Source of the DNA: Kipferlia bialata
Lineage: Eukaryota
Length of the DNA stretch: 35,579 bases
Assembly (NCBI GenBank): GCA_003568945.1
Contig: BDIP01000057.1
Coordinates: 1 to 35,579, forward strand
Reading direction: 5' to 3'
This document shows positions 19-35,579 of the stretch, one piece after another. Both the position numbers and the translations under genes were made by a program. The notes under the pieces are model-generated. The model was not told where the DNA came from, made no database searches, and saw nothing but the letters and a program-made list of their open reading frames with translations. Within the stretch, counting starts at the first letter, position 1; each line of letters begins with the position of its first letter.

Positions 19-3000
19 GATCAAGACCTCCAAGTGCAGCAGGATCTCCAACATCATGTTTGAGCTGCCCAAGGACTTCAACTCATTCAGTGCAGGTATA
101 TATATATATATATTATATTATATTCCACTATACACATGTATATATATATATTTATATATGTGTGTCGGTTTGAGCTGCCCAAGGACTTCAACTCATTCAG
201 TGCAGGTATTCATATGCATGTATACACTATATATATATGAATGTGTGTATGTGTATTTGTATATACTTCCACTCATCCCAGGCCTGTGGCTCAAGGTCCA
301 GAACTACCTCCAGCTGGACAACGAGGTGGGTATCACATATTATATATATTTATTGGTATGTTCATATTAGCCTTCACATACACATGGATAATAGGTCCAG
401 AAGTACCTCCAGCTGGACAACGAGGTGTGTAGCACGTATTATATATATATTGGTATTATGATTTTCTTATGTGTCATACCAAAGCCTTCCGCATTTACTG
501 TGGTGTTCCCCCATAACTATTCCTTCCTTCCACGTCCGTCCATTCTTCTCCCTTGTCTCACCGGACGTGTTATCCCTTTTCAATGTTGTATTTGATTTCT
601 CATATATATATTCGTAATCTCTCTAACCCCAGGGCAGAGAGGCCCGAGACGAAATACTCTATTGTGCATATGTATATTACATCTCTAGTATATTCATATT
701 ATATACATATTGTATACAAGTATGTATCTTCTCTCTGACCCCAGGGTAGAGAGGCCCGTGACGGGGACGACGATGAGGATGGTGAGTAGTACGCTATACT
801 ATATATATACATCAATAGATGGATACTATGAATAAGTATATAGGGATATATATATATATACATATATTTGTGACGGGGACGACGAAGAGGATGGTGAGTA
901 CATGGTAATAGTATCCCATATTGAGCCATTTACTCCTTTTAATGTGACATAGATTCACTCTCACTCAGAATCTATCTCTCTCTAATTATATTCTGTATAT
1001 TATTATTATTAGTATTACTACTTCACATATACCTGACCCCCAGACAAGCACCGTGACTCTCTCTCTCTCCCCCTATCTCTCTCTCTATATATACATATAC
1101 TGTTATGTATGTACCTGTACTGTATATATATACTATCTTACTATCAGACAAGCACCGTGACAGAGAGCTGCCCCACATCACAAGGGAGTTCTTCTTCCAG
1201 GTGTGTGTCTCTCTCTCTCTCTCTCTCCCTCTACACCCTTATTCTGTAGAACCACATCACAAGGGAGTTCTTCTTCCAGGTATCCCTCTCTCTCTCTATG
1301 TCTCTCTCTCTCTTTCTACACCTTTAGATTATCGAACCACGTCAGTAAAGAGTCATTCTTCCAGGTACATATATGTATAGATGTACAATATCTCCCATAT
1401 TCCACGGAACTCATCATCCGACATTTGTCTCTCTTTCTTTCTCTCTCTCTCTCCCTCTACACCCTTAATCCATCTCTCTCTCTTTTAGTTCTCTCTCCCT
1501 CTACACCCTTNCTACACCCTTAATCCATCTCTCTCTCTTTTAGTTCTCTCTCCCTCTACACCCTTAATGCATAGAACACTGTCATCCAACAGCTATCTCT
1601 CTCTCTCTCTCTACACCCTTATTAACTAGACCACTGTCATCCAACATTAATCTCTTTTATACTTATCCCACCATATACTCCCCTAATACCCAGAACAATG
1701 TTATCCACTGCATCTCTCTGTCTCTCTCTCTCTCTCTTCCTCTACACCCTTAATGCATAGAACACTGTCATCCCCTGCATCTCCCTCTCCCTCTACACCC
1801 TTAATGCATATATATATATATCTCTCTCCCCCTCTACACCCTTAATGCATAGAACACTGTCATCCACTGCATCTCTCTCTCTCTCTCTCTCTCTACACCC
1901 TTAATGCATAGAACACTGTCATCCACTGCAGTCAGAGGAGGCGCTACCTGCTGTTCTCATGTCCCAACAGCCAGTTTGATAGGTATAACATATACATTAT
2001 ACATACTATATAGGTGTATTGTATATATATAGTGTATATATAGTGTATATATGGTGTATATGTATTGGTATATACCTGCTGTTCTCTTATGTCCCAACAG
2101 CCAGTTTGACACAGGTATTCTCTTTACAATATTCACTGTATAATAAATCATGTAGATATATGGTTATAGGTATGCTGATACTGATACTGATAATTGATAG
2201 AATATATTATTCTCTAATTGATATGTGATGTAGCTCAATGTGTATAATCCCTCTAACCCTCAGGTTCTGGACGCAGAGGGTGGACAACGAAATACCTTAT
2301 CTGTATAGTATATATGGTGATTGCAGAATCGCAATATGGTTGTGTTTTGTGTATATATTGTATAGTAACCGTCAGGTTCTGGACCCAGAGGGTGGACAAC
2401 CGCAAGCTGGTGTTCTGGAGACTAGGTAGAGACTGTATGTATACTGTCTAGGCATCCCCGAGTTCGTGAGGGAGAGCTGTTTCCATGAATCACATACATA
2501 TAAGACATATATTCACTATTCATATAGGTATATATATATGTATCAATATTGTAGTATTCATATAATTATATGTACATACCTCACCCTAGGCATCCCCGAG
2601 TTTCTGAGGGAGACATATGTCCAACACTTCCTATCCCATTCATATATATATCATATATGTCCATGTATCATATATATGTCTGATATATATAATATATGTC
2701 ATGTATACGTCATTCATGGTATCTATATAGATATCTGACTAGTTAGGCATCCCCGAGTTCTTGAGGGAGAGCTATGTCCTGCACCCCGAGATGTCACAGC
2801 AGTTCCAGGTATATACTATATATGTATTATATATAATATCTATATATGTATATAATATACTACATATAGTATAGTATATATATAGTTGGAAATATATATA
2901 GTATATGTCCTGCACCCCGAGATGTCACAGCAGTTCCAGGTATGTATCGGTATTATATAGTGCATTATATTATATATACATATATATATATATATATGTA

Positions 3001-3750
3001 TACTATAGTATATATATATAGTATATAGTATATGTCCTGCACCCCGAGATGTCACAGCAGTTCCAGGTATAGATATATATCTATATATATATATATATAT
3101 GCACCCACTAATATGGATATGTATATATACCATACCATAATGTGTAGACCCACCACATATATATACCTTAATATACCTTAATATTGTATATATTCAATGC
3201 ATCACTACCCCCAGGGTGGCCAGTTCCCCATGCACCCACTAGTGAATATATGTATATGTATTATTACACACCACATATATACCTACGTAATGTGGTATTA
3301 TTATATATTATTGTATATATACCATAATAATATATATATATTTACTATCTCACCCTCCAGGGTGGCCAGTTCCCCATGCACCCTCCCCCTCCCATGCACC
3401 CACAGACGTTCCTACCAGGTCCCCCACACGTGGTACGTCAAACGTCAAACGTCAAACGTCAAATGGATATATATATATATATATACTTCCTACCAGGACC
3501 TCCACACGTGGTACGTCAATGAACTTCAAGTGATACATTGTTGTATCTCTCACTGTAGCAACTCTCTTTCTCTCTCTCTCTCTCTCTCTATCTAACAATA
3601 GCAGCAGGCTCTTGCCCGGATGGCTGCCCATGGACATATGCCCCCCCACCCACACCCCCACCCACACCCACACCCACATGGACATGGACACCCACACATG
3701 GTATATAGTATATATAGTATATATAGTATGTATAGTAAGTATAGTATATA

Positions 3751-3783
<33 letters not shown>

Positions 3784-6700
3784 CACATGGGCATGGACAT
3801 GGACACCCACACATGGACCCTCACATGGTGAGTATTATAATGCGATGATCGTATGCCATATACATATTAATAGTATATATACCCTACATATGGACATGGA
3901 CACCCTCACATGGACCCACATATGGTATGGATATATATAGTGTGTATATATATATATACATATACGTAGTATATGTGTACCCACATATGGTATGTGTATT
4001 AGTACCTATACACAATATATTTTCCATTGGAAGGATACACATACATATGTAGATCCATATACTGGTTTAGTGTATATACATAATATTATGTATACGTACT
4101 GATGTGTCTCATCTCCCCCCCAGTTCCATTGTGAGAAGATATATTTGCATGGACATATATATTAGTATGTCTGTGTATACTGTCTTGGTATACTGTGTTA
4201 GTATTCTATCCCACCCCCAGTATAGGTATATATATATATTTGTATTGTATACTAGTATAAAATACATATGTACATCTCTGTGTCTCACCCCCAGTTCCAC
4301 CATGGCCCTCATATCGTAAGATAATATGCATGTGTATACTAATATACATATATATATATATATAGTAATTGTATTATACATGTGTATCTCACCCCCAGTT
4401 CCACCATGGCCCACCTGGACACGGTCACGGACATGGTACGTATATTCATTATATATATAGATGTATACTACTTTTTATGAATAGTATATATAGATGCATA
4501 GACATATATTGGTGATGACCCACCTGGACACGGACACGGACATGGTACGTAACATATATATTCATATATAAGTATATATGTAGATAGGATGATAGATGTA
4601 GTTAATACTTATATATATACATGTCACCTGGACACGGGCACGGACATGGTACGTATATATATACTAATATATATATACACGCCAACCCAGACCCTGGACA
4701 TGGGCATGGTATGTAGGTGTATGTGTATTCGACAGACACACATATATTAGTATGTATCTATGTCTGTATATACCCTAACACATCAGACTCAGGCAGGGGC
4801 CACAGACACAAGCATAGATATCAAATTCTATGAATGTATACATATGTTAATTATTAGGGATGTATAGATATGTGTGTGTGTCTATATAGTGTTGTTATGC
4901 CCTTACCATCAGGCCCAGGCAGAGGCCACAGACATATATGTATATGTACATACATATGTGTATATTGTTTACTACTAACCTATATATACACACACACACA
5001 CATATATATACATATATACCCTAACCCATCATAGTGTTGATATACTTATACATACTTATATATACTTATATATATACTTATATATATATATGTACTTACT
5101 GTCAGGCCCAGGCAGAGGCCACAGACACATGTATGTCCAAGTGCATATATATTTGTATATATCCACACATTACTATATATGTAGGTAGGTATATACCCTA
5201 ACCCATCAGGCCCAGGCAGAGGACCTAGACATATATGTATATGTATATTCACCTTCTGTGTGGTATTTACTAACCTATCTACTTATATATGTGTATAGTA
5301 CTATGCCCTTACAATCAGGCCCAGGCAGAGGGCATAGACACAGGCCCAGGCAGATATATATATATATATACATATATACCCTAACCCATCATAGTGTTGT
5401 TATGTACTTACTATCAGGCCCAGGCAGAGGGCATAGACACAAGCACGGACACGGGATGGGGAGGGGGATGGGGAGAGAGGTATGAATATAAAGATGAAAA
5501 GTACATTCCCTCTCCACTATTCTTCTAGGCACAACATTGCATGATGGATCAGACATATATTTGTATACTGCTGTATAGTGTGTATATTTATATGTACCAA
5601 GTATACATGTACGCACATCCTATAGCCTTCTGTGCTACACCCTTTATCCATGCCTCTACACCCTTATATGACAGGCCCTGCAGTGCATGATGGAGCAGAC
5701 CCATGCCGCTGGTGTGCAAGAAGAGAGGGAGAGGTATTATTAATATGTATATATATATGTATATAGGCTATATGTATATTGGCTCTATGTATACATATAT
5801 AAACTATAGTATATACATTCATTATGCAAATATGAATATCAAGAGAGGGAGAGGTAATATATGTAAAGATATATACACATATATATATATATACGTATGT
5901 ATTGGACCATTGTATATACCTGACCCCCCAGACACCAGACTCTCTTCATTTGTTTCTCTCTCTCTCTCTATGTTTACACTCTCTCTGTCTATTCTATGTA
6001 TATATATGTGTGTTAGACTAATACATATATCTGACCCCCCAGACACCAGAGTACGATGCATGGGGACACAGACATGGTATCCAGGTATGTGCATGTATAT
6101 ATATATATGTGTGCGGTATATTATTAGAAACAGTATTCATTAGTGTATAAAATGATGTTTCTTATCCATAGATGTAGAGACAGCCAGTGCCCCAAGTGAG
6201 AAGGAGAGGGAGAGGGAGAGGGAGAGAGAGACTGAGTCCCGTGAGGAGAGTGATCTGCACCATGGCCTGTCGTCACTGGCTGAACTGGCATCCGAGATAG
6301 ACACGGGTGGGTTTATATATATGTATATATATATACTGAGAGAGCTGACTGTATCATACTCATTGTATACATAAACTACATATTGCTATTGCACTCATCG
6401 TCAGGTGCCAAGTCCTCGGCTAAGAATGACACTGGGGGAGAGAGGGAGAGACAGAGGGAGAGGGAGAGGGAGAGGGAGAATGTGCCTGATGGGGCAGTAG
6501 GTATGTATAGTGTAGATAGATGTATATATCTATACAACTATACAGTATATACACTCTAACAGTAGGCCAGACAGGAGACAGAGAGAGAGAGAGAGAGATG
6601 CATACTCACACCCATGATAGGGAGAGAGAGAGATCTGCAACATCGACAGAGAGAGAGCATGGGGGAGAGAGAGAGAGAGAGAGGAGCACATCGGATACTA

Positions 6701-6834
6701 GGGAGAGAGAGAGAGAGAGAGATGACAGAGAGTCATTGGAGGACAGGCAGAGGGCCTATAGAGAGCACTTCATGCACATGCACGGGAGGAGGTATACCTA
6801 TATGTGGATATCTATAGTTATGAACATATATATG

Positions 6835-6867
<33 letters not shown>

Positions 6868-7201
6868 GGGGGGCACTTCATGCACATGCTCGGGAGGAGG
6901 TGTATATCAATATGTACATACATACTGTGACCCCCATAAGAGTAACTGTATATCAGAGTTCCTTATTACAATGCCCTTATTCCAATAGCACTATTCTAAT
7001 TGCAGGATGCACATGAAGCGCCAGTATATATGCATATATATATATATTTATATTGCTTATTCTAATGGTCTTATTCTAATGACAGGATGCACATGAAGCG
7101 CCAGTACATGCAAGGGATGAAGGGTGCAGTCAACCCCAGCATGTTTGGCGGGGGGACAATACCAAGGCCAGGTATATATCTATAGATATATATACATATA
7201 T

Positions 7202-7241
<40 letters not shown>

Positions 7242-9282
7242 CTGTATCCTATACACAGAGACAGAGAGATTTATGATAATATGCTTACATGTATGTATCA
7301 ACCCCAGCATGTTTGGAGGGGGGACAATACCAAGGCCAGGTATATATATATACACAGATATATATATGTGTATATTTGTGGGGAGAGAGAGAGAGAAAGA
7401 CTTTGGTGAGTGGGGACAATACCCAGACCAGGTGATTGAGTTGTTTGCTAGAAATATACTTTGCTATATATATAAAGAGATTGATGTGAATGAGTTTATA
7501 TATGGCTACCCAAGCATGGTTGGAGGGGGGACAATACCCAGACCAGGTATATATATATATAGATATATACACACATATATATATACCTGTATCCTATACA
7601 CAGAGACAAAGAGATTTATGATAATATGCTTACATGTATGTATCAACCCAAGCGGGTTTGGAGGGGGGACAATACCCAGACCAGGTAGTGTAGTATATGT
7701 AAATGGTATATATATATATATAGAGAGAGAGAGATAGAGATTGAGAGATGACTCTTCCAGTATGATACCTCTCCCTCTAGCCCCTTATTCCTCTCTGGTT
7801 ACATAATGAGACTATTTTATATGTATCATCTCTCCTCTCTCTTTGCCCCATGTGTCTCTCTGGTTATGTAGCATTATTCTCTCCCTCCCTCTAGCCCCTT
7901 ATATCAGGCAGTTGTTTGCACCAGTGTGTTCTCTCTCTCCCCCTCTACACCCTTATATCAGGCGGCTGTATGCACGGTCATGGCCCAGGGCCATACGGGT
8001 TCCCATCAGGTGAGTGTATTTTCTATGTTCTCTCTCTCTCTCTCTCTCTATGTTACGTGTCATATCCACCTCTCTCTCTCTCTCTTTCTCTCCCTATAGA
8101 TAGGTATACTCTTACAGTCATTCCCCGAGTACTTCCGTGCCATATTCACCTTTCTCTCTCTCTCTCTATCTCCCTCTCTCTCTATATATATATGTATATA
8201 CATATTCTAACCCCCCAGTCCCCGAGTACTTCCGTGCCATATCTGTGATGCCCCCAGAGACACAAGTGGTGCATGTACGTGTGTATGTTTACCCACATGT
8301 TTACCCTAGGACATATACTAGTTTATTGACCTTGTATGTAATATATAAGTATACATATCTGATGTGCCATATCAGTGATGCCCCCAGAGACACAAGTGGT
8401 GCATATACGTGTATATATATATACATATGTATATATATATGTATGCACAGTCCTGTACACATTGTTGTGATGCCCCCAGAGACACAAGTGGTGCATGTAA
8501 GTATATATATATACATATACATACATACACCTATACTGTACACTACCATATTGGAATATACATACTTACATAATGATATATATATGCATATATATAGTAC
8601 ACCTCTGGCACAAAGTGTGGAGACTCTTAGATTACACATTTACTATTGCTATATTATATACTACAACAATTGCCATGTCCATATGTACCTGACCCCCCCC
8701 CCCCCAGGTCCCTACTATTATATATGTATGTGTGTGTGTATATATATAATGATGATATGGGATGTATATACTGTCCTGGCACAGGGTGTCAAACAATTAC
8801 ATTCTATCTTACTATTAAATAATTATTGTTACAAAAATATGAAAATTGTATTATTATTTTACACACATAGAATTAATGATTGTTCAATGTATACTATTAC
8901 AATGTATATACCTGATACCCAGGTGCCTGTCCCGTGGCACAAGGTGCCTGACGTACTGCACATGCTGCTGGAAGGTATACAGGGATATATATATATATAT
9001 ATATATATACTCCTATGCATATACTATAGATATACTATATATATATATGTACATATAGTATTATATATACAAGGTGCCTGATGTGCTGTACATGCTGCTG
9101 AAAGGTATGGATACAAGGATATAGTGCATACGTATATATACTTATATATATGATATACTGAAGACAAGCATACATACTGGTGTATGGAAGAATAGAGTGC
9201 CTGATACACACTATTATATATGTACATATAGTAATATATATACAAGGTGCCTGATGTGCTGCTGGAAGGTAACACCTATTTC

Positions 9283-9337
<55 letters not shown>

Positions 9338-10461
9338 CCCTACACCCTTAACACCCAGGCCTTGATGACATGAACCACATGATCAGTGATGTGCCCAGCA
9401 CAGACAGGTATATATACATATATATATGTTAATAGTTAAGATTCAGTATATACATACAATGTATAATATATATATAAATATATATGGTGTGTACTTATGA
9501 ATATATGAACCACATGATCAGTGATGTGCCCAGCACAGACATGGTATGATTGAGTATGGAGACAATATACATTAATATATATGAATATATATATATAGTG
9601 TATAATATGGTGTATACTATTATATTTGTATATATATAATGATGACTATTATGTTGGATATCACTTGTATGTATGTATTAGTCTTATCCCCCAGGTGCCC
9701 ACCCATCAATGCTGCCCAGAATGTCCACTGGCTCTCTCTCTCTCTCTCTCCCCCCCCCTCTCTCTCAATATATATACATATTCGCATACTCATTAACCCT
9801 AAGGGTTCCACCCCGCAATGCTGCCCAGAATGTCCACATGTACAGAGACGCCATTGACAGTGACAGGTACTGATACACTTTGCATATATACTATATATAT
9901 ATATATAGTATATATATATATAATGTATGTCCACATGTACAGAGACGCCATGGAGGGGGAGAGGTATAGAGGGTATATATTGTATCTACTCTATCTATTG
10001 TATATATATAGTATGTACTCATACCAGGTCCAGACCCATGTCCCAGCGACCCCCCTCTCATATGGGCACACCAGGCGACAGGGGTAGGGAGAGGGAGAGA
10101 GAGAGAGACATGCCCACAGCCACAGTGGCATCCCTGGAGACAGAGCAGCAGGTATATTGTTATATACATATACTATATACTATAGTGCCTATATACTATA
10201 TATAGTGGATATACTCAATACTGCCACAGTGGCATCACTAGAGACAGAGCAGCAGGTATTTATACTATATACATCCTCTACACCCCTAATGATTTTGCTC
10301 ATCTCACCCTTCAGGTCGAGAGGGAGAGAGAGAGAGAGAGAGTCCTCGCCCAGGAGAGAGAGGTCAGACGCGTGCCCCAGGGTGGGGAGAGAGAGAGAGA
10401 GAGAGACCAGGGGTATGGGCACGGTACTCCCGCCAAGAGAAGACCCTCTTTCACAGGATGA
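19..10461 (+). CDS. Gene 1: multi-exon hypothetical protein (5' end outside window), ~610 aa visible; globular-looking N-terminal part followed by His/Pro/Gly-rich and Glu/Arg-rich low-complexity regions
   Basis: Manual GT-AG exon chain: 19-95, 282-325, 745-781, 1148-1200, 1912-1982, 2376-2425, 2747-2808, 3361-3432, 3602-3700, 4399-4435, 5418-5479, 5675-5733, 6043-(6050 or 6084), 6172-6306, 6405-6500, 6566-6791, 7086-7171, 7962-8009, 8219-8268, 8923-8974, 9359-9407, 9804-9866, 10028-10151, 10315-10461 (TGA). It reads IKTSKCSRISNIMFELPKDFNSFSAGLWLKVQNYLQLDNEGREARDGDDDEDDKHRDRELPHITREFFFQNTVIHCSQRRRYLLFSCPNSQFDRFWTQRVDNRKLVFWRLGIPEFLRESYVLHPEMSQQFQGGQFPMHP...GYGHGTPAKRRPSFTG*. Phases agree at all junctions except around 5675-6172. 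No family recognised. Confidence 0.8.
168..900 (+). repeat. Intronic partial copies (echoes) of gene 1 exons 1-3 including splice sites
   Basis: 168-209 is identical to 58-99 (exon end + GTAT). 393-427 matches 294-328 with 1 mismatch. 623-651 copies the acceptor and start of exon 745. 870-900 copies the end of exon 745-781 + GTGAGTA. Confidence 0.95.
1033..1871 (+). repeat. Echo array around exons 1148-1200 and 1912-1982
   Basis: Acceptor echo at 1033-1057 and donor echoes at ~1252-1283 and ~1336-1367. Five acceptor echoes of (CTACACCCTTAATGCATAG)AACACTGTCATCC occur at ~1556, ~1625, ~1690, ~1743 and ~1834, separated by (CT)n tracts. Confidence 0.93.
2073..3237 (+). repeat. Echo array around exons 1912, 2376, 2747 and 3361
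   Basis: Donor echo at 2073-2117. Acceptor echoes at 2253-2288, 2449-2480, 2588-2622 and ~3206-3237. Two perfect donor echoes, TATGTCCTGCACCCCGAGATGTCACAGCAGTTCCAGGTAT, at ~2904-2943 and ~3031-3070. Confidence 0.95.
3436..3463 (+). repeat. Heptamer tandem repeat (CGTCAAA)x4 directly after a splice donor
   Basis: gtaCGTCAAACGTCAAACGTCAAACGTCAAAtgg follows exon 3361-3432. Confidence 0.9.
3781..5352 (+). repeat. Echo array around the His/Gly-rich exons 3602, 4399 and 5418
   Basis: Several GGACATGGACACCC...CATGGT copies at 3781-3995. CCCCCAG|TTCCA acceptor echoes at ~4113 and ~4285. CACCTGGACACGGNCACGGACATGGTACGTA donor echoes at ~4519 and ~4625, with a degenerate one at ~4693. Five TCAG|GCCCAGGCAGAGG-type acceptor echoes at ~4783, ~4909, ~5102, ~5206 and ~5314. 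Confidence 0.93.
6873..10259 (+). repeat. Echo arrays around the 3' exons of gene 1
   Basis: Donor echoes at ~6873; ~7297, ~7400, ~7508, ~7642 (GGGGACAATACCMAGRCCAGGT x4); ~8363, ~8466; ~9069, ~9243; ~9505; ~9928; ~10221. Acceptor echoes at ~6991, ~7892, ~8110 and ~9683. Confidence 0.93.
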
Positions 10462-10780
10462 AAGTTCTCTCCTGCACCCTTTTGCCACCCATGTTGTCGG
10501 GATGAGCAGAAACAATACCGTTCCAATTGTTTTCATGTATTTGTGTTCTCACTGTTGTGTTGTACAATAGACATTATTGAATGACGAGTGATGAATGATC
10601 AGAGTGAATTCTCTTGATTGTAATCGTGCTCTTTGTTTGCATAGTTACTAAATGTATGTTCCATGTGACTAATAAGGATATGCTTACGAATCTATTACTG
10701 TAATGCAGTAATCGAGAGAGAGATGAATGTGCTTGTATGTATATGTAATGAATATTTACATATGCAGAACAAAGAGAGAC

Positions 10781-11032
10781 CAAGTGGTCCAGTCCTGAGA
10801 TTTCTCTCTCTCTCTATCTCTCTCCCTCTACACCCTTAATCCAGGTCCCACTGTGTCCAGTCCCGAGACGCCTCGTTCTCTCTCTCTCTCTCTTCCTCTA
10901 CACCCTTAATCCAGGTCCCACTGTGTCCAGTCCTGAGAGGCACGCATCGACTGCTCAGCTGCTAGCTTCTGCTGCTTGGCACGGAGTCTCTCCATGGCAG
11001 CCTGAGATAAGGGGTACAGTACGAGTAGCGCA

Positions 11033-11069
<37 letters not shown>

Positions 11070-14000
11070 AGACTCTCTGTCTATACATATACTATAACAT
11101 ATCTTACCTGTCTCTCTCTCTGTTGTAGGGCGAGCAGTGCCTGTCTCTCCCGTGTCTCTCTCTCTCTCTCTTCTCTCTAGACTCTATATCTATATACACT
11201 ATTATATATCCTACCTGTCTCTCTCTCTGCTGCAGTGCTAGCAGTGCCTGTCTCTCCCGTGTCTCTCTCTCCCGCCTCTCTCTCTCTAGTCTGGCTCTGT
11301 TGTGCACAGCTGAGAGCTTGCCCTGACTCCTATGATTAGATGCGTTAGAGTGTATATACATATATGATGTATGAATTGCATTTATGTCTATATGTATTAG
11401 CCTGGCTCTGTTGTGCACAGCTGAGAGCTTCCGCTGACTCCTGAGGTTAGATGCAATAGAGTATATGTATATAGTCGCCGCTCTCTCTCTCTCTATATAT
11501 ATATATAATATCTCCATGACTTCATTATAGTAGCACTGTTACCTTACGTAACCCTTGCCCTCATGTCTCCGGACTCTCTCTCTCTGTGCCTGGGCTGCTC
11601 TATCAGCCTCAGTCTGCACTGCCTTCTCTCTCTCTCTCTCTCCTTGTGTGGAGGAAGAGGCCTCTGTGGCCTCCCTCCCTCTCTCATCTCTCTGTTCTCT
11701 CTTTCGCTGCTCTCTCTGCTGACGTTCTACCTCCCTCTGTCTCTCAGCCTCCTTCTCCGATCTCTCTTTCTGTCTGCGTATCTCCTGCTCCTGCTTCTCC
11801 CTTGCAACCCTCTCCCGTCGCTCCTTGGCTACCTAACTAGTGAGACTGATGACTAGTCCCACGTAGAGTCCACAATGATATTCATACTCGGAGAAGGTAG
11901 TGATTGAACAGTCAACCATAAGGTGAGATACACTAAATGAACTCTCGTACCTCGGCCTCTCTCTCCCTCGCTGCTGCCTCCTCTCTCTCCCACCGCTCCC
12001 TGTTCTCCCTCTCTCTGGCCTGGGCATAAGGGTTGAGAATAATAACCAGCTGATAGTGAAGCCGATAGATCTATACAAATTCTATGTATTGTGATCTATA
12101 GACTACATTTCATATACCACATACCTCTCTCTGTTCCTATGTCTCATTGTTGTACTACTTGTCTAGCCTAGACTCTAGGCTATATATGTACAAATTGAAT
12201 AATACAATAGATATATCTATATATATACAGTATATTACAATTAATGTGGATATATTATGTATATGTACATACCTCTCTCTGCTCCCGTGTCTCATCATTG
12301 TTCTGATTGACCTTGGCTCTGGCCCTGGCAGCAGCAGCCTCTGCCTCTCTCTTGACCTAGGGGTGAGAGTGGGTTACTCGTTATAACAACTTGTTATTAT
12401 CGCACTCCTTATAAACGAGTGATTACATATGTGTGGTGAGAGTGTAAGGACATACTATCAACTATTATAAGAATACATGGGTTGTGCTATTCCTAGCTCC
12501 CTCTTGACCTAGATGTGAGTGTGTATATTGACGACCGTATAGAACTAATGCCCCGGTAATAACCTTGCGTGTACCAACATACACATAGTACACATACACA
12601 AATGTATAATACCACATGGAGACTGGTACACAATATATAAACATATACAACATGTCATTCTACAAAAGAGAGGATTAGAGAATGCATGGACCCCACTGTA
12701 GCATCCCAGGCCCTCCTAGCGGCCTCCTCTCTCTTCTTCTGTGCCCGTATAGAGCCATATACAGAGACTTAGATTGTGGCATTCTATGCTAGAGAGATTG
12801 CATGTGTGTATAGTACCTTGGCGTCCCAGGCCCTCCTTGCAGCCTCCTCTCTCTTCTTCCGTGCTGCTTCCTTGGCCTTCCTCTCAGCAGAAGTCTCTCT
12901 CTTGGTTTCTCTCTTAGTCTCTCTCTGAGGTTGTGGCTTAGAGGCCTTAGCCTGACATAAGTATGATAGATACATAGAGTTGTTGACAAGCATCGGGGTT
13001 AGGTATACTAGCAGTGGTGAGATATATGCTTTGGGTGGGTATGAGTTGGAGGTATAAATGTCCGATACCTTCGCATTGCCAGTAGTGTGTGGTCTAGTCC
13101 CCTTAGCACCCTTAGTCCCTCCACTGATGCACTTGCAGTACTTGTCATAGGCTGCCCTCTCATCTGCATCACTCAGGGTCTCATAGGCACACTGTAATAA
13201 GTATACAGTCATTTACACTCATACATATCTATATACACAAGTATATCATATATCATATACTATATGTACATGTCCTCTCATCTGCATCACTCAGGGTCTC
13301 ATAAGCAGCCTTAGGATATATATATATGTATATGTACATGTCCTCTCATCTGCATCACTCAGGGTGTCATAAGCGGCCTTGAGTTAGTGTACACACAAAC
13401 AAGTATACATATATCGTTGTTTGCAAGAGATCACAAGTTGCTGGGTACTGTATGTACCTTGAGACGCTTGAAGACCTCATATACCTCAAAAGATACAAAA
13501 ATACCTCCTATAATGGTCACAATACAAAGGTGCAAGAGACCACTGTAATAATTGATACCTTGAGACGCTTGAAGACCTCTGTGGCCTCCTCTGATCTGTC
13601 CAGATTGCGGTCTGAAAAGTGAGCGAGAGAACAAGATACAATTTCTTTTACAATCAGGTTATAGAACATCTAACACTAGATAGCTGTCTGACCAGTGAGA
13701 GATGGTGCAGAGGATGACGCGAGGACAAAGATATATACATTACTATTATATAGTCTATAGTCTATAATCAATGGTCTACACTTATACTCACCAGAGTGCC
13801 ACTCCAGGGCCATCCTACGATAGTACGTGCATACGAATTGTATATAGCACATACAGTACATGTAGAAGGTATTACTATGTAGTGTAACAGTATGTAGTAT
13901 GTACTCACCAGGGTGCCACTCTAGTGCCAGCTTCCTGATCTACCATGATACCATGGTATATAGTGATATATATATATAGTGCTCTATAGTCTACTATATT

Positions 14001-16617
14001 ATATATATATACATTATATACATTATATATATACTATATATATATATAATATATATATCATATATGTAATATGAGTACATACTCACCAGGGTGCCACTCC
14101 AGGGCCAACTTGCGGTATGCCTTCTTGATCTCAGACACAGTGGCAGAGGGGGTAACGCCAAGGCTCTGGGGTTGGAATACGATACATATAGTATTGGTAC
14201 AGTACGCCGTCTTGATCTGAGGGACAGTGGCAGAGGGGGATTCATATACTATTAGAGTCAATATATTAGTGTAACCATACATGAATACATACACATAGAT
14301 ATTCGTATTGAAGATAGTATTCAGTGGCAGAGATAGACTACCTCAGGTAGTGACACCAAATGTGAAAGGATTAGGCAGTGCTATATAATTGCTATAATGG
14401 CAATTGTGCTTGATACTATACTAATGTAGTACACTATACGATTCAATTCTCAGGGACAGTGGCAGAGGGACGCCAGGACTCTGATGGTAAACTATGGTAT
14501 ATGGTATATGGTATACACATACCTTATAGTAGTACTCTTGACACGAACTAGACTTGGTGGCCAATGAATGATACTTGGCAAATACACAATAATTCACATA
14601 CCTATCAATATGTATATATATGTGTATCTTACCTTATAGTAGTCCTCTTGACACGAACTATACTTGGTGGCCCTGGCCCTAGCATTGGCGTTCTCCCTCT
14701 TCCGTCTCTGCCTCTCCTCCTCATCAGCGACATCTCTCTTCTCTCTCTCTCTCTTCTCTTGCTCCTTCCTCTCCTTCTCTCTCTGCTTCTTCTTCTGCCT
14801 CATCTCATTGGCCACTCTCTCCCTCTCTCTTGCATTCTCCTGCGCCACTCGCTCTCTCTCCCTCTGGCGCCTGGCCTCGTTGGCCCCGCTGCTCTCTCTC
14901 TCCCTCTCTAGCTGACGCGTGAGTGATTGCACTTGTCTCTCTGCTTTAACACGTGCCTCTCGCTCAGTCTCAGCCAAGCCTGATAGTTTGGCGCACTCCA
15001 CCTCTAGTCTCTCTCTGAGTCTCTCGTACTGCCGGGTCTTGTCGTCTCTGTTACGCTCAGCCTTCTCCCTGGCCTCCCTCTCCAGCTCTCTCTCCCCAAT
15101 GAGCACGGCAACCTGTATTGGTAAGTGTCCTTGATATATCCCCTAATATCAATATGTATATGGAATAGCCATGCAATATTACAATTACTCCTATGCACCC
15201 ACCTGTCTCAGCAGCTCAGTCTCGCCCAGACTGTCGGTCTTGTCCCCATCCATCTCATAATCCCTCTCTCCCTCTCCGTCTATCTCTCCCTTCTCTACTA
15301 CATCACCGGTATGACCAGCTGTCTCTGCACTCTCAGAATCTGGAGCATGTAGAGTGACAGATGGTGTCTCGGCAGGAGTGCTCTTGGCGCTCAGTTGGGC
15401 CTCAAGTTCCTATACGTAAGAGTATATATATGTGCAATAGTGTACCCGTTAACACACTGTCACCGACAGACTAATCCTACCACGTACTAGATCTATATGG
15501 CAACCATAAAGGAAATAATATGTGTATGTGGAAAACGGTTTGGGCCTCCAGTTCCTATGGATAGGTGAATGAATACTGGTAGAGGTATAGATCTAGGCAG
15601 TAACCCACCTGTATCCTGGCATGTAGTGACGTGTTCTCTGTCAGAACTGAGTTCAGTGACTGCCTAGAACGTTAGTCAAACGGTATTCATTGGAACAAGT
15701 GATAAGATACTATATACTCACACTATACATTGTAGTATATATTCACCTCATCGTTTCCTTCTCCTGTCTCTCGCTGTCCCTCTCCTTGCTGTATAGGGTG
15801 GCCTTCTCCTTGAGGGACTCGATAGTCATCCTGATGTCAGTGCATATGGTTTATGGTATATATATATATATATGTATATATATATCATTATACATATAAT
15901 ATAAACATATGATAACAATAGGGTAGTCTTCTCCTTGAGTGATAGTTATCCTGCAGTGTCATGTACACATTTTGTACATACACCATATAAGTAGTCTATA
16001 CGAGTATATCACATGTGCATACCTGCAGTACTTGCTCATCACACCCCTCTGCACAGTGGAGATATACATGTATACATATACACATGCATATATCACATAG
16101 GTATTCTATGGGAGTTTGGGTTATATACCAAGTGCATACCTGCAGTACTTGCTCATCACACCCCGCTGCACAGTGGAGATACGGCGCTGGGGTAAGTAGT
16201 GAGTCTCAATACTATTTATCTCTTTCTCTCAATTTGAAAGCAAAAGAATATGTGCATTGACACCTCGAAGAATGGATAGCGGAGGCTAAAACTTGTATAC
16301 GAGGTATAGAAGATTGGTCTGAAGTGGGTCTAGATTTCTATATATCACCTTAGCTGCTGCCAACTGTGATGCCAGTGCCATTGCCTGACTCTGTGCTGTG
16401 TCTCTCTCCTCCCTCAGGGTCTGGATCAGTTCAGCTGCCCTCTCCTGTTGTGAGGATATATATAGAGGGTATAGATACTCACTGTCTCTCTCTCTGTATA
16501 TATATCGATATATATTGGTTTCTCATGGGTCGGGATGAGTTGGGCAGTCCTCTTCTGCAGTTAGAGATTCAGAAGATACACGCTACATGCTGCCCCCTGC
16601 TACCACCCCAGCACTTT

Positions 16618-16650
<33 letters not shown>

Positions 16651-16703
16651 TGTACAAGTATATATATATGAATCTTTGTCGTACCTCCTCTCCCTCTCTG
16701 CCA

Positions 16704-16736
<33 letters not shown>

Positions 16737-16942
16737 CATGAATCTTTGTCATACCTGCTCTCCCTCCCGGCCCCTCTGCTCCTCAGAGAGATGGCGCTGG
16801 GGTTAGAAGGATCACTTCAGAGAGACAAGAATGACAGAAACTAGGGTATGCATTAGATTGAAAGAGCTCGAGGTGTTCTGATCGTTGTACTATACCTGTG
16901 TGTCCTCCAACCTGGCAGCTTGTCTCTACTGCTTGTCTCTAT

Positions 16943-16973
<31 letters not shown>

Positions 16974-19650
16974 TCATTAGATGGGTATATATATACATAC
17001 ACTATACCTGAGCGTCCTCCAGCCTGGCATTGAGGCTGGCTATCTGTAGGGTGGCACGGTGGAAGGCCTGGGATAAGATATTCGTGGACTCAATGGATCT
17101 AAGTATATGAATATGTCTATAACAATCATATACTGAGTTACCAGTTGGCTATCTGAAGGGTGGCACGGTGGAAGGCCTACGAGTACATCATACCTCCTGA
17201 CAGCACCTCAGGGAGGTGTAATCCGTACGGTGATTGGTGCCAGCTGATGCTGGGCTAGGTGCTTCTGGATCCGAGGCGTCTGGCTCTGAAGCGCCGAACG
17301 GTGTACGGTTGACGGTGTACGTTGCTGGCTCCGAGGCGTCTGAGTCTGTGTCCAAGTCCATATCCACTGGGTTTTCATTGAACACATCACTCTCTCTCCC
17401 CCCCTCTCTCTCCCTCTCTCTCTCCCTCTCTCCACCTTCCTCTGCTTCTCTCTGTGTTGAGGTCTGGTCACCCAAGTCGGAGGACTCACTGAACCCATCA
17501 CTGTACTCTCTCTCTGTGTCCTGCTCTCTCTCCCCCTCTGTTGACTTGTCACCTTTCTCTCTCTCTCCATCTGCTCTCTCTCTTGACATGTCATCGGAAC
17601 CATCACAGTCCCAGTACCACCTGTCCCCACCACTCTCTCCCTCTCCCTCTCCCTTTGCATCCGGCTCTCTGTCTCCCTCTCCATCTATGCCATCAAGCTC
17701 AGAGCCTTCACTATCACTAGCTGGCTCCACCTCTCCCTCTCTCTCTCCCTCTGTCTCTGCTACTCTGAGTGGGACACCCTCACCACTAGGGGTTGTGACC
17801 CTAGAGCCTATGCTAGAGTCAGGGTCAGTTGTCACCCACACAGCCTCTGCTACCCGCTCATGCACAGAGGACGTAGCAGTATCAGCACCAGTTTCATGAT
17901 CTGCAAAGGTGCACTCATGGACAGAAGACGCAGACACACTCTCTAAGGGAGTCTCTACTAGAGTCTCTTCCTCGCCTTCCCGGTCTCCATCTCCTAGTAT
18001 CTCACTCTCCAGTTCCTCTGTGGTCTCAGACCCTGCACCAGAGAACTCCTCTCCCTCTCCCTTTTCATCTCTCTGTGACCATCTCCCCGCCATAGGGAGA
18101 TAGGTATCAGTATAACTACCACCCACACTCTGGGCCTGGGCTGTATCCTCTCCCTCTCTCTCCCCCCCTCTCTCTTCCCCTCCCTCTGCCCATCTCCACT
18201 CCCCATAGAGTGAGGGAGTATGAGTACGAGTACTAGCACCACTCACACTCTGGGTATGTGCTGTATAGGCAGCATAGCCAAAGCTCTCTGTGTCCCTCTC
18301 TCCCTGTCCTACTTCCCGTCTATCTACCTCTCCTACCCCTACAGTTGGGGTGTATACCTCATATGTATACAGAGGATACACCTTAGGCCAGGGATCCTTC
18401 TCTCCCCCTTCTCCTCCCTCTTCTATCCTAGTGCGAGTACCTACAGTACCAATAGTCTGAAGACTCACATTCTCCTCTCTCCCTCCCTCCCCCACTGCCA
18501 TAGGCCTCTTGCCCTCCCCATGTCTCTCGCCCTCCCACTGCTTAGGTCTCTCCCTCTCTCCTCCCATGCCCCCTTCTACCTCTGGTGGCTCTAGAGGCCT
18601 GTCGAATCCCCTGCGGCTATAGAGTCTCGGTCCAGTGCTGGGTCTCTGGGTGGTACTGGGAACGGTGTGCGGTGTACCGGGTACAGCGACGTTGGGTAAC
18701 GTGTAGAGACGTGAAATGGGTGTACCCAGAGAAGACCCTCCAAGGTGGTAGTAGGGATAGACTGGAAAGGCTAGAGGAGGCTCAGGTGCCTAGAGAGTCA
18801 GAATATATAGATAGTATGTATTAATATAGTATATATATATATATATATAGTATAACTATGACTCTCAATGTTCCGTGCACTATAAATAGATATACACATA
18901 TACATATATATATATATGTGTGTGGGTATTGATATGTATATATATATATGCATACCCTGGGTGGCTCAGGCACAGACTCAAGCATTTAGTATATAACACA
19001 CCCACCCACTATTCATAGTGTATTATCCTTATATAGATGTATATATGCAGTATATATACCTTGGGTGGTGGTTCAGGCGCATACTCCAGCATCTAGTATG
19101 AACCGTACCCACACTATTCAATGAATAGTATTCGTGGTGTCCACTATGAATAGTATTCATAGCGTATTATACATATGTATATACAGTACACATATACCTT
19201 GGGAGGTGGTTCAGGCACAGACTCCAGCAGGGCAGCCACTAGCTCTGTGAATCTGGCTGTTAGACTAGTATGATCCTGAAAAATAGACAGATAGATACAT
19301 GTATATTGCACACACTCTATAGTAAGGTAGATAACATTATACATGCATAGTATATAATGTGAATATGTCTTGCTTCTCTGGGTCCACCTTCCTCACCCAG
19401 TACCCTCTCTCTATACACACACATATATATGTGTATATGTATACATTCATCTATATACCGTACCTCTCTGGGTCCACTTTCCTCACCCAGTCTGCGAGGC
19501 CCTGGGCCATCTGGGACTGGGTCTAGGGGTAAGAATGGGTATATATATACACATACATCAAATAGATACTATTTGTATACGATAAGTATTATGTAGTATC
19601 TGTCAGTCTGAGAGGCACTGTGCCGTCTGGGACTTCTGTATGCTGGGGGG
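10781..19650 (-). repeat. Partial exon copies (echoes) throughout gene 2 introns and just past its stop codon
   Basis: Examples: 10781-10800 and 10826-10870 (terminal codons + TAA); 11104-11180; 11398-11455; 12121-12152; 12495-12513; 12700-12745; 13273-13315; 13340-13385; 13455-13480; 13786-13823; 13903-13936; 14202-14240; 14449-14484; 14521-14563; 15541-15558; 15918-15953; 16015-16062; 16671-16702; 16893-16917; 17146-17179; 18953-18984; 19058-19092; 19374-19401; ~19606-19637. Polarity matches gene 1 relative to the transcribed strand. Confidence 0.93.
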
Positions 19651-20070
19651 TGACAGAGAGGAGAGGGTGTATACGGTAATCTATACCATGTACTGTATAT
19701 ACGTATGGGGTGAATATGTGTACCCCTTCTGCTATCAGTATAATCTTGTGCTACGTAGTGAGGAAGAGAGAGTATACCCAGAAACACATTACACTAAGAA
19801 TAGCACACACATGGGAGAGAGGGAGGGAGTATATGGATCTACGTTTGAGTATGAGGGGGGGGGAAATGTGTGTGGTGTTAGAGGGGATAGAGGGAGGGAG
19901 GAGGTGTTGGAGGGCAGTAATTAATACAGTATAGTATGCAGAAGTTTGGTATGATGTGGGAGGGGGGAGGGGTATTCAAAGTACATCACATACCTCATAA
20001 CCATCTGGAATGATTCCGAACTGTGGTAGTCCCTGAGCCATGTCATACACAAATACCAGGTGGGTATGGT
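10906..20070 (-). CDS. Gene 2: large (~1300 aa) coiled-coil/low-complexity protein with an internal DnaJ (J) domain; true 5' end not identified
   Basis: Minus-strand exon chain with consistent phases: 20070-19994, 19522-19464, 19264-19198, 18789-17194, 17067-17008, 16796-16755, 16444-16349, 16186-16140, 15830-15747, 15663-15609, 15409-15203, 15112-14633, 14165-14087, 13611-13559, 13191-13069, 12951-12817, 12356-12273, 12019-11951, 11832-11543, 11329-11215, 11001-10906 (…SQDWTQWDLD TAA). It includes ORF-track segments 17188-18567, 14594-15106 and 12784-13212. Confidence 0.85.
13144..14647 (-). other. J-domain of gene 2, split over four exons
   Basis: Spliced sequence EDYYK|SLGVTPSATVSEIKKAYRKLALEWHP|DRNLDRSEEATEVFKRLK|CAYETLSDADERAAYD matches the canonical J-domain pattern (DYY..LGV...A...EIKKAYRKLA...HPD…F..I..AYE.LSD...R..YD). 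The Asp codon of HPD is split by an intron. Confidence 0.95.
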
Positions 20071-20099
20071 CTGGAATGAGTATTGTATAATATACTTAC

Positions 20100-20423
20100 A
20101 TAGAGGTATATATATATGAAGAGAGAGAGGACCCCACTCGTACAGATGCACAAGGTGGGTATGGTCTGGAATCAGGACAAACTAAAATACTTACACAGAT
20201 GTATATAATATGTATATGAAGAGAGAGAGGGGACCCCACTCGTACAGATGCACAAGGTGGGTATGGTCTGGAGTGAAATAGTTCAGTCTACTGCAGGAGA
20301 GAGAGGGGGGTGGGACAACTACTCTTACATGTCATACATATACATAAGGTGGGTATGGTCTGGAATGAGTACTGTATAAAGAGAGAGAGAGAGAGGGGGG
20401 GGGGGGGGCAACCACTCATACAG
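20100..20423. repeat. Tandem ~95-100 bp unit (3 copies plus a partial one) between genes 2 and 3
   Basis: The unit is GAGAGAGAGG(G)n-ACCCCACTCGTACAG-ATGCAC-AAGGTGGGTATGGTCTGGA, at ~20121, ~20221 and ~20297. A fourth unit at ~20381 runs into the gene 3 exon. Confidence 0.9.
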
Positions 20424-29526: not shown

Positions 29527-29801
29527 CCCTTCTGTGGCAGAGTAACTCTTTCTACGATGGCCAGTTTTGGCCCAAGTGCTTTCCAACGTGTGTATGTAAC
29601 CTTGTATAGTTGTGTGTTCTTTGTGTGTACTGTTATGTTCGTTGCCGAATAGATCAGGCAATGGTGACTCCAGTGATACCGAATCTATTATTATTATGGG
29701 CCTATGACAAAGACATGATGGCTTCCAATCACACACATCTCCTCTCAGCGTCTACCCCTTCCAATTATCACTGTGAAGTATGTACACCAAACACTTAGAC
29801 T

Positions 29802-32800: not shown

Positions 32801-33685
32801 GAACCATAGCCCTCTCTGACCTGGAGTAAGGCACTGTTAACAGCATATGCACTGCACCTCTGACTGTGGTAGAACAGTGTATTCAGACGACGAATATTGT
32901 GGTCCACTCACATAAGAGGTATGGTAGGCTCACAGAAGAGCTCAGTTCTGGCTATATCTAATGCCTGGGATGAGACCACACGAGAGTGAGTGGGGGAGGG
33001 GGGGGGGGGTACTATAACAATTTTCAACCATTGGTGTATGACGTACATCAGATCAGTACTAAGACAATCCCTGACACACAACAGACAAGGCATGGCATCC
33101 ATACGACACCCACCTCCTCTACCTCTGTCAAGAGGTCCTCTGGTGTACTGTGTTCCAGACACATAGCAAGGTTCTGTGCCACCTACGGGTAAGACACAAG
33201 TGGAGTATAGTATATATCGATAGTCCGGATTGCTCGTCGTGAATAAATGGCTTGTGAGTAGGTGTTTTCAAAGTGAACAATATATGTATACCTTGACCCT
33301 GAGGACTGCTGCTCTCTCTCTCCTTCTCTCACTCTCCCTCATGGCCTCTCCTGTGAGAGAGCAAGTGCTACACTTGCAAGTGAAGTCATACATACGTTCC
33401 AGGTATTCGTGTCTCTCCTGCCTACACAGCCTGAGCGTTAGTAGGGTGCAAAAACCTCAGACTTAGACTGCTGCTAGTAACAGTGAAAAGAAATGAACAC
33501 CCACAGCTCATATGCGTATTCTGTACACATACCAGGGGTCGGTATAGCAGAGAGTGAGTTCCTGCCCTTCACGAACGTCGCATGCTGTGCGGATCATGGC
33601 TCTTCCCTGGTGTAAAAATGTATCATTGAAGAGACGGAGGGGGAACTAAGTCCCTTAGTGACAAATGGGTCTTCTATCTAGCAAA

Positions 33686-33730
<45 letters not shown>

Positions 33731-34559: not shown

Positions 34560-34728
34560 TGTCGAGTGCGTCAGAACGAAGTGGAAACACCAGACCACAT
34601 GTTTTTTGTGTCTTCAGAGAAAAGGGTGTAGTCACTCCTTTTTTGCGAAATAAGGGTACACAGTAAACCGTCATGCCTCATGACCAAACAGAGTCTATAG
34701 GGTGGCTGGCTGTCGATAGGACTCGGAG
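34560..34728. promoter_or_regulatory. Short divergent intergenic region, probable bidirectional promoter
   Basis: About 170 bp lie between the ATG of gene 4 (34559, -) and the proposed ATG of gene 5 (34729, +), with T-tracts. No specific motif is assigned. Confidence 0.5.
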
Positions 34729-35528: not shown

Positions 35529-35535
35529 GTACAAT

Positions 35536-35569
<34 letters not shown>

Positions 35570-35579
35570 CCTCTTTCTT

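Follow-up and report, generated by a model that had tools for sequence, protein, structure and literature searches.

Two neighbouring genes and their exon-edge echoes

The window, a 35,579-nt stretch of contig BDIP01000057.1, comes from the free-living protist Kipferlia bialata, and our analysis covers two neighbouring genes on this one contig.

19..10461, + strand: gene 1, product unnamed; 24 exons within the window, its 5' part lying beyond the contig
10909..20041, - strand: gene 2 (KIPB_000497), J-domain protein; 21 exons, from the unique, exact spliced map of P0001

Five exons of gene 1 (19-95, 282-325, 745-781, 1148-1200 and 1912-1982) are joined in a spliced contig, X2 record 9; the remaining 19 of the 24 were assigned by hand, with every intron GT-AG and a single open frame, and a database search for a protein matching gene 1 found none. 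The gene 2 product carries a DnaJ domain (PF00226) at residues 940-1003.

We find that 35 of the 43 introns of these genes hold "echoes", duplicated units of ≈110 nt that consist of a splice site, 12-70 nt of the exon edge and a piece of intron. All 64 lie on the side where splicing removes them, and whole-exon copies are absent among these 64 matches. The nearest echo is shifted by 59-178 nt (median 111), well within 5 kb of its donor exon, with 36-153 nt of intron-type DNA between the two. Intron length is ≈138 nt plus 118 nt per echo, and echoes account for most of it. Chance matches occur in 12 of 963 cross-gene exon-intron pairs; echoes are thus exon-specific and local. A short CT-rich acceptor motif is highly repeated.

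Gene 1 (+ strand):
168..205: downstream echo of exon end 58-95; 0 differences, donor kept
393..424: downstream echo of 294-325 (N/K), within a read-derived DNA contig, 270-1049
633..893: exon 745-781, echoes 633-651 (upstream) and 870-893 (downstream); shifts -112 and +112, halves overlap by 6 nt
1044..1364: exon 1148-1200, echoes 1044-1057 (upstream), 1252-1279 and 1337-1364 (downstream)
1575..2112: exon 1912-1982, five upstream echoes (1575-1871) and downstream echo 2073-2112 with a 2-nt insertion
2264..3066: echo 2264-2288 of exon 2376-2425; exon 2747-2808, echoes 2452-2484 and 2590-2622 (upstream), 2904-2939 and 3031-3066 (downstream), 7-nt overlap
3215..3912: exon 3361-3432, echoes 3215-3237 and 3487-3510; exon 3602-3700, echoes 3781-3815 and 3887-3912
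4295..4648: exon 4399-4435, echoes 4295-4308 (upstream), 4515-4544 and 4625-4648 (downstream), 7-nt overlap
4787..5345: five upstream echoes of exon 5418-5479; two synonymous states common to the three farthest
5529..6899: exon 5675-5733, echoes 5529-5554 and 5841-5853; exon 6566-6791, echo 6873-6899
7006..7684: exon 7086-7171, echo 7006-7029 (upstream) and four downstream echoes (7298-7684); four synonymous states common to several echoes, three replacement changes private
8122..8496: exon 8219-8274, echoes 8122-8145 (upstream), 8364-8404 and 8466-8496 (downstream), 9-nt overlap
9069..9542: exon 8923-8974, echoes 9069-9104 and 9242-9268 (9-nt deletion); exon 9359-9407, echo 9505-9542
9695..10255: exon 9804-9866, echoes 9695-9728 and 9927-9963, 8-nt overlap; exon 10028-10151, echo 10220-10255

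Gene 2 (- strand):
11108..11440: exon 11329-11215, echoes 11440-11398 (upstream) and 11178-11108 (downstream); shifts -111 and +107, halves abut
12125..12744: exon 12356-12273, echo 12156-12125, containing TAG; exon 12951-12817, echo 12744-12697
13271..14475: J-domain exons, echoes 13309-13271, 13377-13339, 13478-13458, 13812-13792, 13933-13909, 14239-14202 and 14475-14448
14523..16064: echoes 14562-14523, 15554-15540, 15950-15918 (5-nt deletion) and 16064-16023
16527..17176: echoes 16554-16527, 16707-16685, 16917-16896 and 17176-17146
18960..19638: echoes 18984-18960, 19091-19060, 19401-19374 and 19638-19604; the halves flanking exon 19522-19464 overlap by 4 nt

Where an exon has both an upstream and a downstream echo, the two halves sum to about one exon and are complementary, as if an old exon had been split. 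They overlap by 4-9 nt in 6 of 14 paired exons, a modestly significant excess (2.8 expected under the null; P 0.02-0.04), and in none of the 14 does the overlap exceed 12 nt; non-overlapping pairs mostly leave gaps, of 7-25 nt in 6 of 14, and fixing the true junctions would take an empty site. Within an array, break points recur from echo to echo and some states are held in common.

Silent and replacement differences in the exon parts

Between an exon-edge copy and the real exon, silent positions differ about five times as often as those that alter the protein. With one echo taken per exon side and codon-blind detection, differences occur at 25 of 793 zero-fold and 26 of 163 four-fold sites, a ratio of 0.20 (bootstrap 0.11-0.34; P = 8e-4 against 0.5, the floor for a copy dead from birth). 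Four detection settings place the ratio at 0.20-0.28; taken separately, gene 1 gives 0.21 and gene 2 gives 0.19, and the wrong reading frames give 1.4-2.5. Four-fold sites give a kappa of about 1 (13 transitions, 28 transversions), and pN/pS is 0.21-0.37 at kappa 1-2; at kappa 4 a plain synonymous/non-synonymous test is often not significant. Significance is likewise lost in some settings for upstream echoes alone (binomial P 0.07-0.31) and for gene 2 alone (P 0.014-0.09). Compared with one another, echoes give a ratio of 0.28 (11/191 vs 9/44), significantly below 1 (P = 0.006) but compatible with 0.5 (P = 0.15).

A sequence-only reading of the window had held that echoes differ from exons mainly at synonymous sites, and had named a pooled ratio of about 0.5 as the result that would speak against selection on them; we obtain 0.20-0.28 instead. 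Its echoes and nearly all of its codon pairs are recovered, at 11108-11178, 13909-13933, 10220-10255, 633-651, 3487-3510, 12697-12744, 16023-16064, 4515/4625, 15540 and 19374, as are the conservative replacements (HVSKES vs HITREF, 1337-1364) and the counter-examples, namely the TAG in 12125-12156, the 2-nt insertion at 2073 and the 5-nt deletion at 15918-15950. Two items, AGG/CGC near 13936 and YRRM in 13812, fall just beyond the codon-blind alignments and are seen by eye only. Taken as a count, "mainly synonymous" is not borne out, since 86.5 of 175 differences (49%) are synonymous in the loosest codon-blind catalogue (67 echoes); third positions hold 93 of the 175 (53%), barely above the half proposed as a yardstick. 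The earlier codon list was selective, missing replacement-only echoes, among them 393 (N/K), 870 (D/E), 6873 (H/L), 14523 (Y/S, D/Y), 2452 (three replacements) and 9927 (four), and leaving out a G/D in the cited 4515 echo.

Echoes dead from birth, with the low ratio produced by faster silent change in the exon lineage or by ascertainment, and with introns decayed by microsatellite slippage, would be in keeping with the replacements that make up half of the differences, the stop and frameshifts, the (TA)n-rich introns and the non-significant subsets. We consider this improbable. Echoes were detected without reference to codons, and in simulation the pipeline keeps the ratio at ≈0.53; four equal-rate dead-from-birth simulations give medians of 0.52-0.63, with P(≤0.198) of at most 0.002, and 26 four-fold differences are seen against a base-matched expectation of 9.6. 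Exons would have to mutate at least three times as fast as echoes (P = 0.015 at twofold, 0.146 at threefold), and the DNA adjoining the echoes evolves fast, not slowly. Gene-conversion donors within one haplotype, another earlier suggestion, are disfavoured on algebraic grounds, as such donors should be unable to bring the ratio below 0.5.

Intron parts, splice sites and transcripts

Sequence identity falls steeply where exon meets intron. Of the 42 nearest echoes, 19 have an exon part that differs by at most 5% (11/581); in these the exon part is 98% identical and the intron part 66% (453/681 aligned bases), exceeding the 95th background percentile in only 7 of the 19; across all nearest echoes, 13 of 42 are at or above that percentile. 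Identity at intron nucleotides 3-6 is 0.69 at donors (background 0.44) and 0.55 at acceptors (background 0.38), and it remains above background as far as 30 nt into the intron (40 of the 42 echoes, after removal of two that were mis-anchored), indicating that the intron parts are homologous but deeply split. The splice dinucleotides are kept in 30 of 36 downstream and 23 of 24 upstream echoes, which suggests that echoes have been dead only briefly.

A plain tandem duplication or splice-site VNTR predicts a ratio of at least 0.5 and an intron part as conserved as the exon part; we find neither. Its further expectation, that the first donor is used while inner copies stay silent, agrees with all 4 introns covered by the one low-depth spliced contig. 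A more elaborate version, in which the same allele is duplicated in tandem and allelic conversion, crossover or unequal exchange later swaps the exon or overwrites the echo, also traces the silent bias to allelic diversity in a very polymorphic population, arising after birth of the echo. It accounts equally well for the ratio of 0.2, predicts the reused break points and shared states of arrays through unequal exchange, and sits well with the intron parts that are clearly alike (the 13 of 42 above). Nevertheless it is unlikely, if the strongest of the competing explanations: intron parts should differ by only ≈6% (twice the zero-fold rate) unless exchanges replace them, whereas nucleotides 3-6 differ by 31-45%, and complementary upstream and downstream halves are not predicted. 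Old echoes in which spliced RNA or cDNA from one or the other allele renews the exon part alone would explain the sharp border, but a spliced template cannot restore GT or AG, which match in 92-100% of echoes at both positions, with nucleotides 3-12 above background; we regard this as highly improbable.

The earlier proposal that echoes are still translated, with minor isoforms keeping them under current protein selection, fares poorly, and we judge it very unlikely. In its favour, most splice sites are intact, RNA evidence comes from just one contig (depth ≈19), assembled contigs drop rare isoforms, which limits how absence from mRNA can be read, and downstream echo lengths are a multiple of 3 in 19 of 36, although alignment ends and sister echoes may account for this count. 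On the other side, echoes lack a second splice site (AG precedes 0 of 36 downstream echoes, GT follows 1 of 24 upstream echoes), which makes present translation unlikely; shifts are a multiple of 3 in 12 of 42, an in-frame, stop-free extension is possible for 4 of 42, and the spliced contig skips echoes, including those of exon 745-781 that lie within DNA contig 270-1049, with the outermost sites used in 4 of 4 introns. Duplicated cassettes or mutually exclusive exons were rejected on the same splice-site and open-frame counts and on the lack of whole-exon copies. The idea of protein selection on echoes thus falls for the present, and likely holds until recently.

Comparison with the assembled contigs covers bases 1-2005. 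Here we find no second allele or other letters, and one clean contig runs across 270-1049. An assembly artefact, in which two haplotypes of a heterozygous diploid are written in tandem, would yield both silent bias and diverged introns, and run X1 is a possible source of the window and hence not an independent sample. It is nonetheless the least credible explanation, as the separately assembled contig 270-1049 runs without a difference or gap through three whole echoes, junctions included, at a depth of 412, similar to other contigs of the run, and arrays of four or five different echoes exceed two haplotypes.

Captured alleles as a possible origin, and related systems

Echoes probably descend from other functional alleles. 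That they arise by inter-homolog break repair between divergent chromosomes with an end-joined junction is an evenly balanced proposition. A short exon would suffer a break; one end would invade the homolog, where only exons match, and copy ≈110 nt through the splice site into its intron, rejoined out of register; end-joining of the extended to the unextended end would make the new allele the exon and bury the old half, with its own splice site and intron, in the intron, this old/new polarity being our inference. An event would survive only if its copy spans the splice site, since the site closest to the body of the exon is the one that splicing picks. Echo and exon would both have been coding until the event, with a few neutral changes, stops and indels later, so that most differences (60-90% of four-fold divergence) would be allelic and silent. 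Unequal exchange could then multiply or collapse arrays. This preferred explanation combines two earlier suggestions that fit the data, unequal exchange between diverged haplotypes and retired ex-exons; of serial exon turnover, an ordered age ladder appears in two arrays only and not overall (4 concordant, 4 discordant, 3 ties; n = 11).

Weighing on the break-repair route, a single one-sided event does not account for two-sided cases, which would require a double junction or a break point used again, and the implied intron divergence between alleles is extreme, at least 30% at nucleotides 3-6 vs 16% at four-fold sites. No second allele appears among the protein clusters, where P0001 and P0002 are single-member, and none, nor another strain, in metagenome scans. 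By k-mers K. bialata looks diploid, in the available text of PMC5874029; that of PMC8516963 describes NHEJ as absent from metamonads, and Rad51A as lost, with two Dmc1 paralogs, in all fornicates examined, and the accessible part of PMC6719624 has Dmc1 stabilising mismatched joints. We offer only tentatively, and with more doubt than belief, the full scenario that in Kipferlia, which lacks NHEJ and Rad51A, exon breaks are routinely mended by Dmc1 with a highly divergent homolog as template and alternative end-joining as the last step; this would swap exon alleles, bury old halves at most exons and make introns grow in ≈110-nt steps, as a readable archive of past alleles. If true, population diversity and allele turnover would be measurable from one genome, and intact inner donors and acceptors in genes with 100-nt introns would imply splice sites paired across exons in a reduced fornicate spliceosome. 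The mechanism, if general, would be a new way for introns to grow and for exons to be replaced, linked to the unusual fornicate repair kit, and existing data could address divergent-homolog recombination, population diversity, and exon versus intron definition by the spliceosome.

One-sided invasion or templated insertion, with one homologous and one end-joined junction, gives local duplications; in the literature searched, it is nowhere described as giving rise to exon-edge copies on a pervasive scale or to captured alleles, and no account of such exon-edge echoes turned up either. Splice-site-spanning local duplications are already known as rare events; here they are pervasive and bear a quantitative two-allele signature. 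Duplications mediated by SDSA repair (Pace et al. 2009, PMC2671141) are likewise short copies close to their source, in some cases with exons and splice sites included; their junctions show microhomology, small deletions, filler or short target duplications, of which the overlaps and gaps of the paired halves may be counterparts. The text available to us counts 824 in a human genome, against echoes in 35 of 43 introns here. Unlike them, echoes are directly adjacent, splice-site-centred and ≈110 nt long, with a silent bias pointing to another allele as template. The donor-spanning minisatellite in intron 7 of human F7 (Borensztajn et al. 2006, PMC1557585) similarly has downstream duplicated donors of which the most upstream is used, but is, as excerpted, one locus of near-identical 37-bp units with donors only, whereas in Kipferlia acceptors are mirrored too (the last one used) and intron parts have diverged. 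Intron gain by tandem duplication (Hellsten 2011, PMC3265369; Ma 2016, PMC4974935; Lehmann 2010, PMC2891723; 10.1101/051292) also duplicates an exon and hides it by splicing, the new intron arising, in the portions available, from an AG|GT in the duplicated exon; in Kipferlia it is splice sites already present that are duplicated, and introns already present that grow by ≈118 nt per echo. We rejected this origin, since the intron is not built from the duplicated exon and intron-type DNA separates echo from exon. Introner elements are families of near-identical introns at unrelated sites; within the two genes analysed, echoes are exon-specific and local, and the CT-rich acceptor motif is highly repeated.

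Echo anatomy and distribution

Two annotated proteins of Kipferlia bialata anchor the 35,579-nt window, KIPB_000497 as a 100% match of a 531-aa exon and KIPB_000498 (gene 3) as the match of a long plus-strand frame, and echoes, i.e., intron-borne copies of the edge of a neighbouring exon with its splice site and a piece of intron, were followed in two genes:

19-10461, + strand: gene 1, 24 exons, the first five from a spliced contig and the rest by hand
20041-10909, - strand: gene 2 (KIPB_000497), 21 exons in a unique spliced map, DnaJ domain

The other 19 exons of gene 1 were inferred by hand with the aid of an automatic model, which skipped exons; every intron of the hand model is GT-AG and the reading frame is open. 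A 75-aa exon of gene 1 used as query gave no database match.

A self-comparison of the window returns 94 direct repeats less than 1 kb apart, all of them before 21.6 kb. We find 50-69 echoes, depending on threshold, in an anchored, gapless and codon-blind search of genes 1 and 2, with chance matches in 12 of 963 cross-gene pairs; sets of 67 and 60 echoes were mostly used. A downstream echo holds the 3' end of the exon and its donor, an upstream echo the acceptor and the 5' start of the exon, and the donor is retained in 30/36 and the acceptor in 23/24 echoes. All 64 matches of an unanchored search (two low-complexity hits skipped) lie on the expected side, where splicing removes them, and none copies a whole exon, which rules out whole-exon duplication followed by decay. 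At least one echo is present in 35 of the 43 introns of genes 1 and 2, and each echo adds ~118 nt to a base length of ~138 nt, with introns lacking an echo spanning 65-162 nt and the nearest echo shifted by 59-178 nt (median 111). A fixed tract length is unsupported (correlation of echo length with the intron part, rho -0.24, P=0.10), and no break-site consensus was seen by eye.

In a held-out search of gene 3, mapped up to residue 129, no echo was found in the first five exons. Repeats at 20058-20370 and at 21352-21572 lie in untranslated sequence or measure less than 20 nt, and near repeats are almost absent between 22 and 29.5 kb, where exons are long. Toward the contig end, a multi-intron region (29800-35579), one gene of which may by eye be SET-like, lacks near repeats and contains little (TA)n, compared with 5-25 repeats in every 2 kb of the first 16 kb. 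Echo density is regional. At 10787-10941, the gene 2 terminus, including the stop codon and a downstream motif, is itself echoed (one close and one partial copy), and the process thus extends beyond splice sites. Four copies of the donor region that surrounds the first coding exon (9 nt) of KIPB_000498 lie at 20058-20370; two of them contain the same ATG micro-exon, leaving the start ambiguous. By eye, the annotated protein also likely requires a GC-AG intron with a TGATAC hexamer repeat at 21105-21175.

Silent-site bias and intron divergence

The sequence-only reading had held that echoes differ from their exons mainly at synonymous sites; its examples are correct but selected, as 67 echoes give 86.5/175 synonymous differences and 93/175 at third positions. 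The pooled ratio is the sounder statistic, and here the core of that reading is upheld. The null, in which the copy is dead from birth and the exon next to it takes silent changes only, requires a ratio of replacement to silent rates of at least 0.5. When each exon side contributes its nearest echo (42 of 60), zero-fold sites differ at 25/793 and four-fold sites at 26/163, a kappa-free ratio of 0.20 (P=8e-4; bootstrap over echoes, 0.11-0.34) that is 0.21 in gene 1 and 0.19 in gene 2, 0.23-0.28 under other settings and 1.4-2.5 in wrong frames. Pooled echo sets give pN/pS of 0.21-0.37 at kappa 1-2 and 0.28-0.44 at kappa 4, where significance is often lost; kappa at four-fold sites is near 1. Simulation of birth, decay and detection (1000 runs per scenario) places dead-from-birth medians at 0.52-0.63, with P<=0.002 at equal rates; doubling the exon mutation rate raises P to 0.015 and tripling it to 0.146. 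In several settings the bias is not significant for upstream echoes by themselves or for gene 2 by itself, and the subset of eight echoes at exons with RNA support (2/130 vs 2/19) is uninformative. Same-haplotype conversion is ruled out by algebra, its ratio having a floor of 0.5.

The intron part of the echo units gives a second signal. A single-allele origin predicts that it differ by around 6%, roughly double the zero-fold rate, and yet in 19 echoes with 11/581 exon-part differences it matches at only 453/681 aligned bases. With two mis-anchored echoes dropped, intron nt 3-6 show an identity of 0.69 in donors (background 0.44) and 0.55 in acceptors (background 0.38), and at nt 7-30 identity stands 0.11-0.24 above background. 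Divergence rises from zero-fold (3%) through two-fold (7%) and four-fold sites (16%) to intron (at least 30%), an order that is the look of two functional alleles; in a simple mixture, 60-89% of the four-fold divergence dates from the time when both copies coded.

Proposed origin by break repair between alleles

We propose that a break within a short exon would be repaired from a divergent homolog, homologous only in exons; one end would copy past the splice site into the intron of the other allele and then end-join to the unextended end, so that the old exon half would come to lie, together with its splice site, within the intron. Events without a splice site in the copied tract would break the frame and be lost. 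The core claim is common to this reading and its main rival, in which echoes are born from the same allele and allelic exchange comes later. A second allele was found neither in reads on bases 1-2005 nor in metagenome scans for other Kipferlia, which were empty. In published work, K. bialata k-mer peaks are diploid (PMC5874029), NHEJ is absent from metamonads, while fornicates have lost Rad51A and carry two paralogs of Dmc1 (PMC8516963), and Dmc1 tolerates mismatches (PMC6719624); this context fits break repair between alleles without proving it.

Fourteen exons have echoes on both sides, and the paired echoes sum to about one exon: 6/14 pairs show an overlap of 4-9 nt (2.8 pairs expected under the null; P=0.039, and 0.016 when permuted within pairs), 8/14 leave gaps of 1-25 nt, and overlap never exceeds 10 nt (12 nt in the loosest setting). 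These complementary halves suggest an old exon split by an incoming new copy, a weaker signal than the ratio and the intron part. Far echoes in two arrays have silent states in common, and an age ladder as a general rule is ruled out (4/4/3 over 11 arrays). At 13191 (- strand), where the annotated J-domain exon begins with Cys, echoes 13309 and 13377 both read Ala and may retain the older residue.

Echoes fail the tests of a plain tandem duplication, of intron gain by duplication (mechanisms in 10.1101/051292) and of duplicated alternative exons. Echoes resemble repair-mediated duplication in mode of working (PMC2671141), and their splicing resembles that of the F7 intron-7 repeat (PMC1557585). 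The main text of the genome paper has no occurrence of 'duplicat', and a literature search, its coverage mostly outside subscription journals, returned no description of the echo architecture.

Echoes in reads and splice-site choice

Read evidence covers bases 1-2005 and comes from runs X1 and X2; runs X3 and X4 give no coverage and count neither way. A contig from sequencing run X1 (depth 412) spans 270-1049, including the echoes at 393, 633 and 870, with 0 differences and 0 gaps; X1 may be the source of the window, making this contig an independent assembly rather than an independent sample. A contig from run X2 (depth 19), RNA by guess and GT-AG spliced, joins 19-95, 282-325, 745-781, 1148-1200 and 1912-1982; in 4/4 introns the splice runs from the first donor to the last acceptor, and no variant letters are listed in this comparison. 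AG directly precedes 0/36 downstream echoes, GT directly follows 1/24 upstream echoes, 4/42 extensions are in frame and open, and the echoes contain one stop and several indels. Echoes are probably not translated at present, and rare isoforms may exist. That the last acceptor is used although the upstream copies are intact suggests, from four introns, pairing of splice sites across exons. PMC6679479 gives 87 of 174 spliceosomal proteins in K. bialata.

A CT-rich 17-nt motif precedes many gene 1 acceptors, with 16 matches against 0.01 expected at 1225-10908, all on the + strand, and its summed depth of ~290,000 in run X1 marks it as repeated genome-wide; two antisense copies, at 10822 and 10892, lie at the gene 2 stop codon. 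Only a few bases separate a branch-like CT(N)AY motif from the AG at acceptors of both genes, a placement that resembles the fused branch-point/acceptor of Giardia and Trichomonas.
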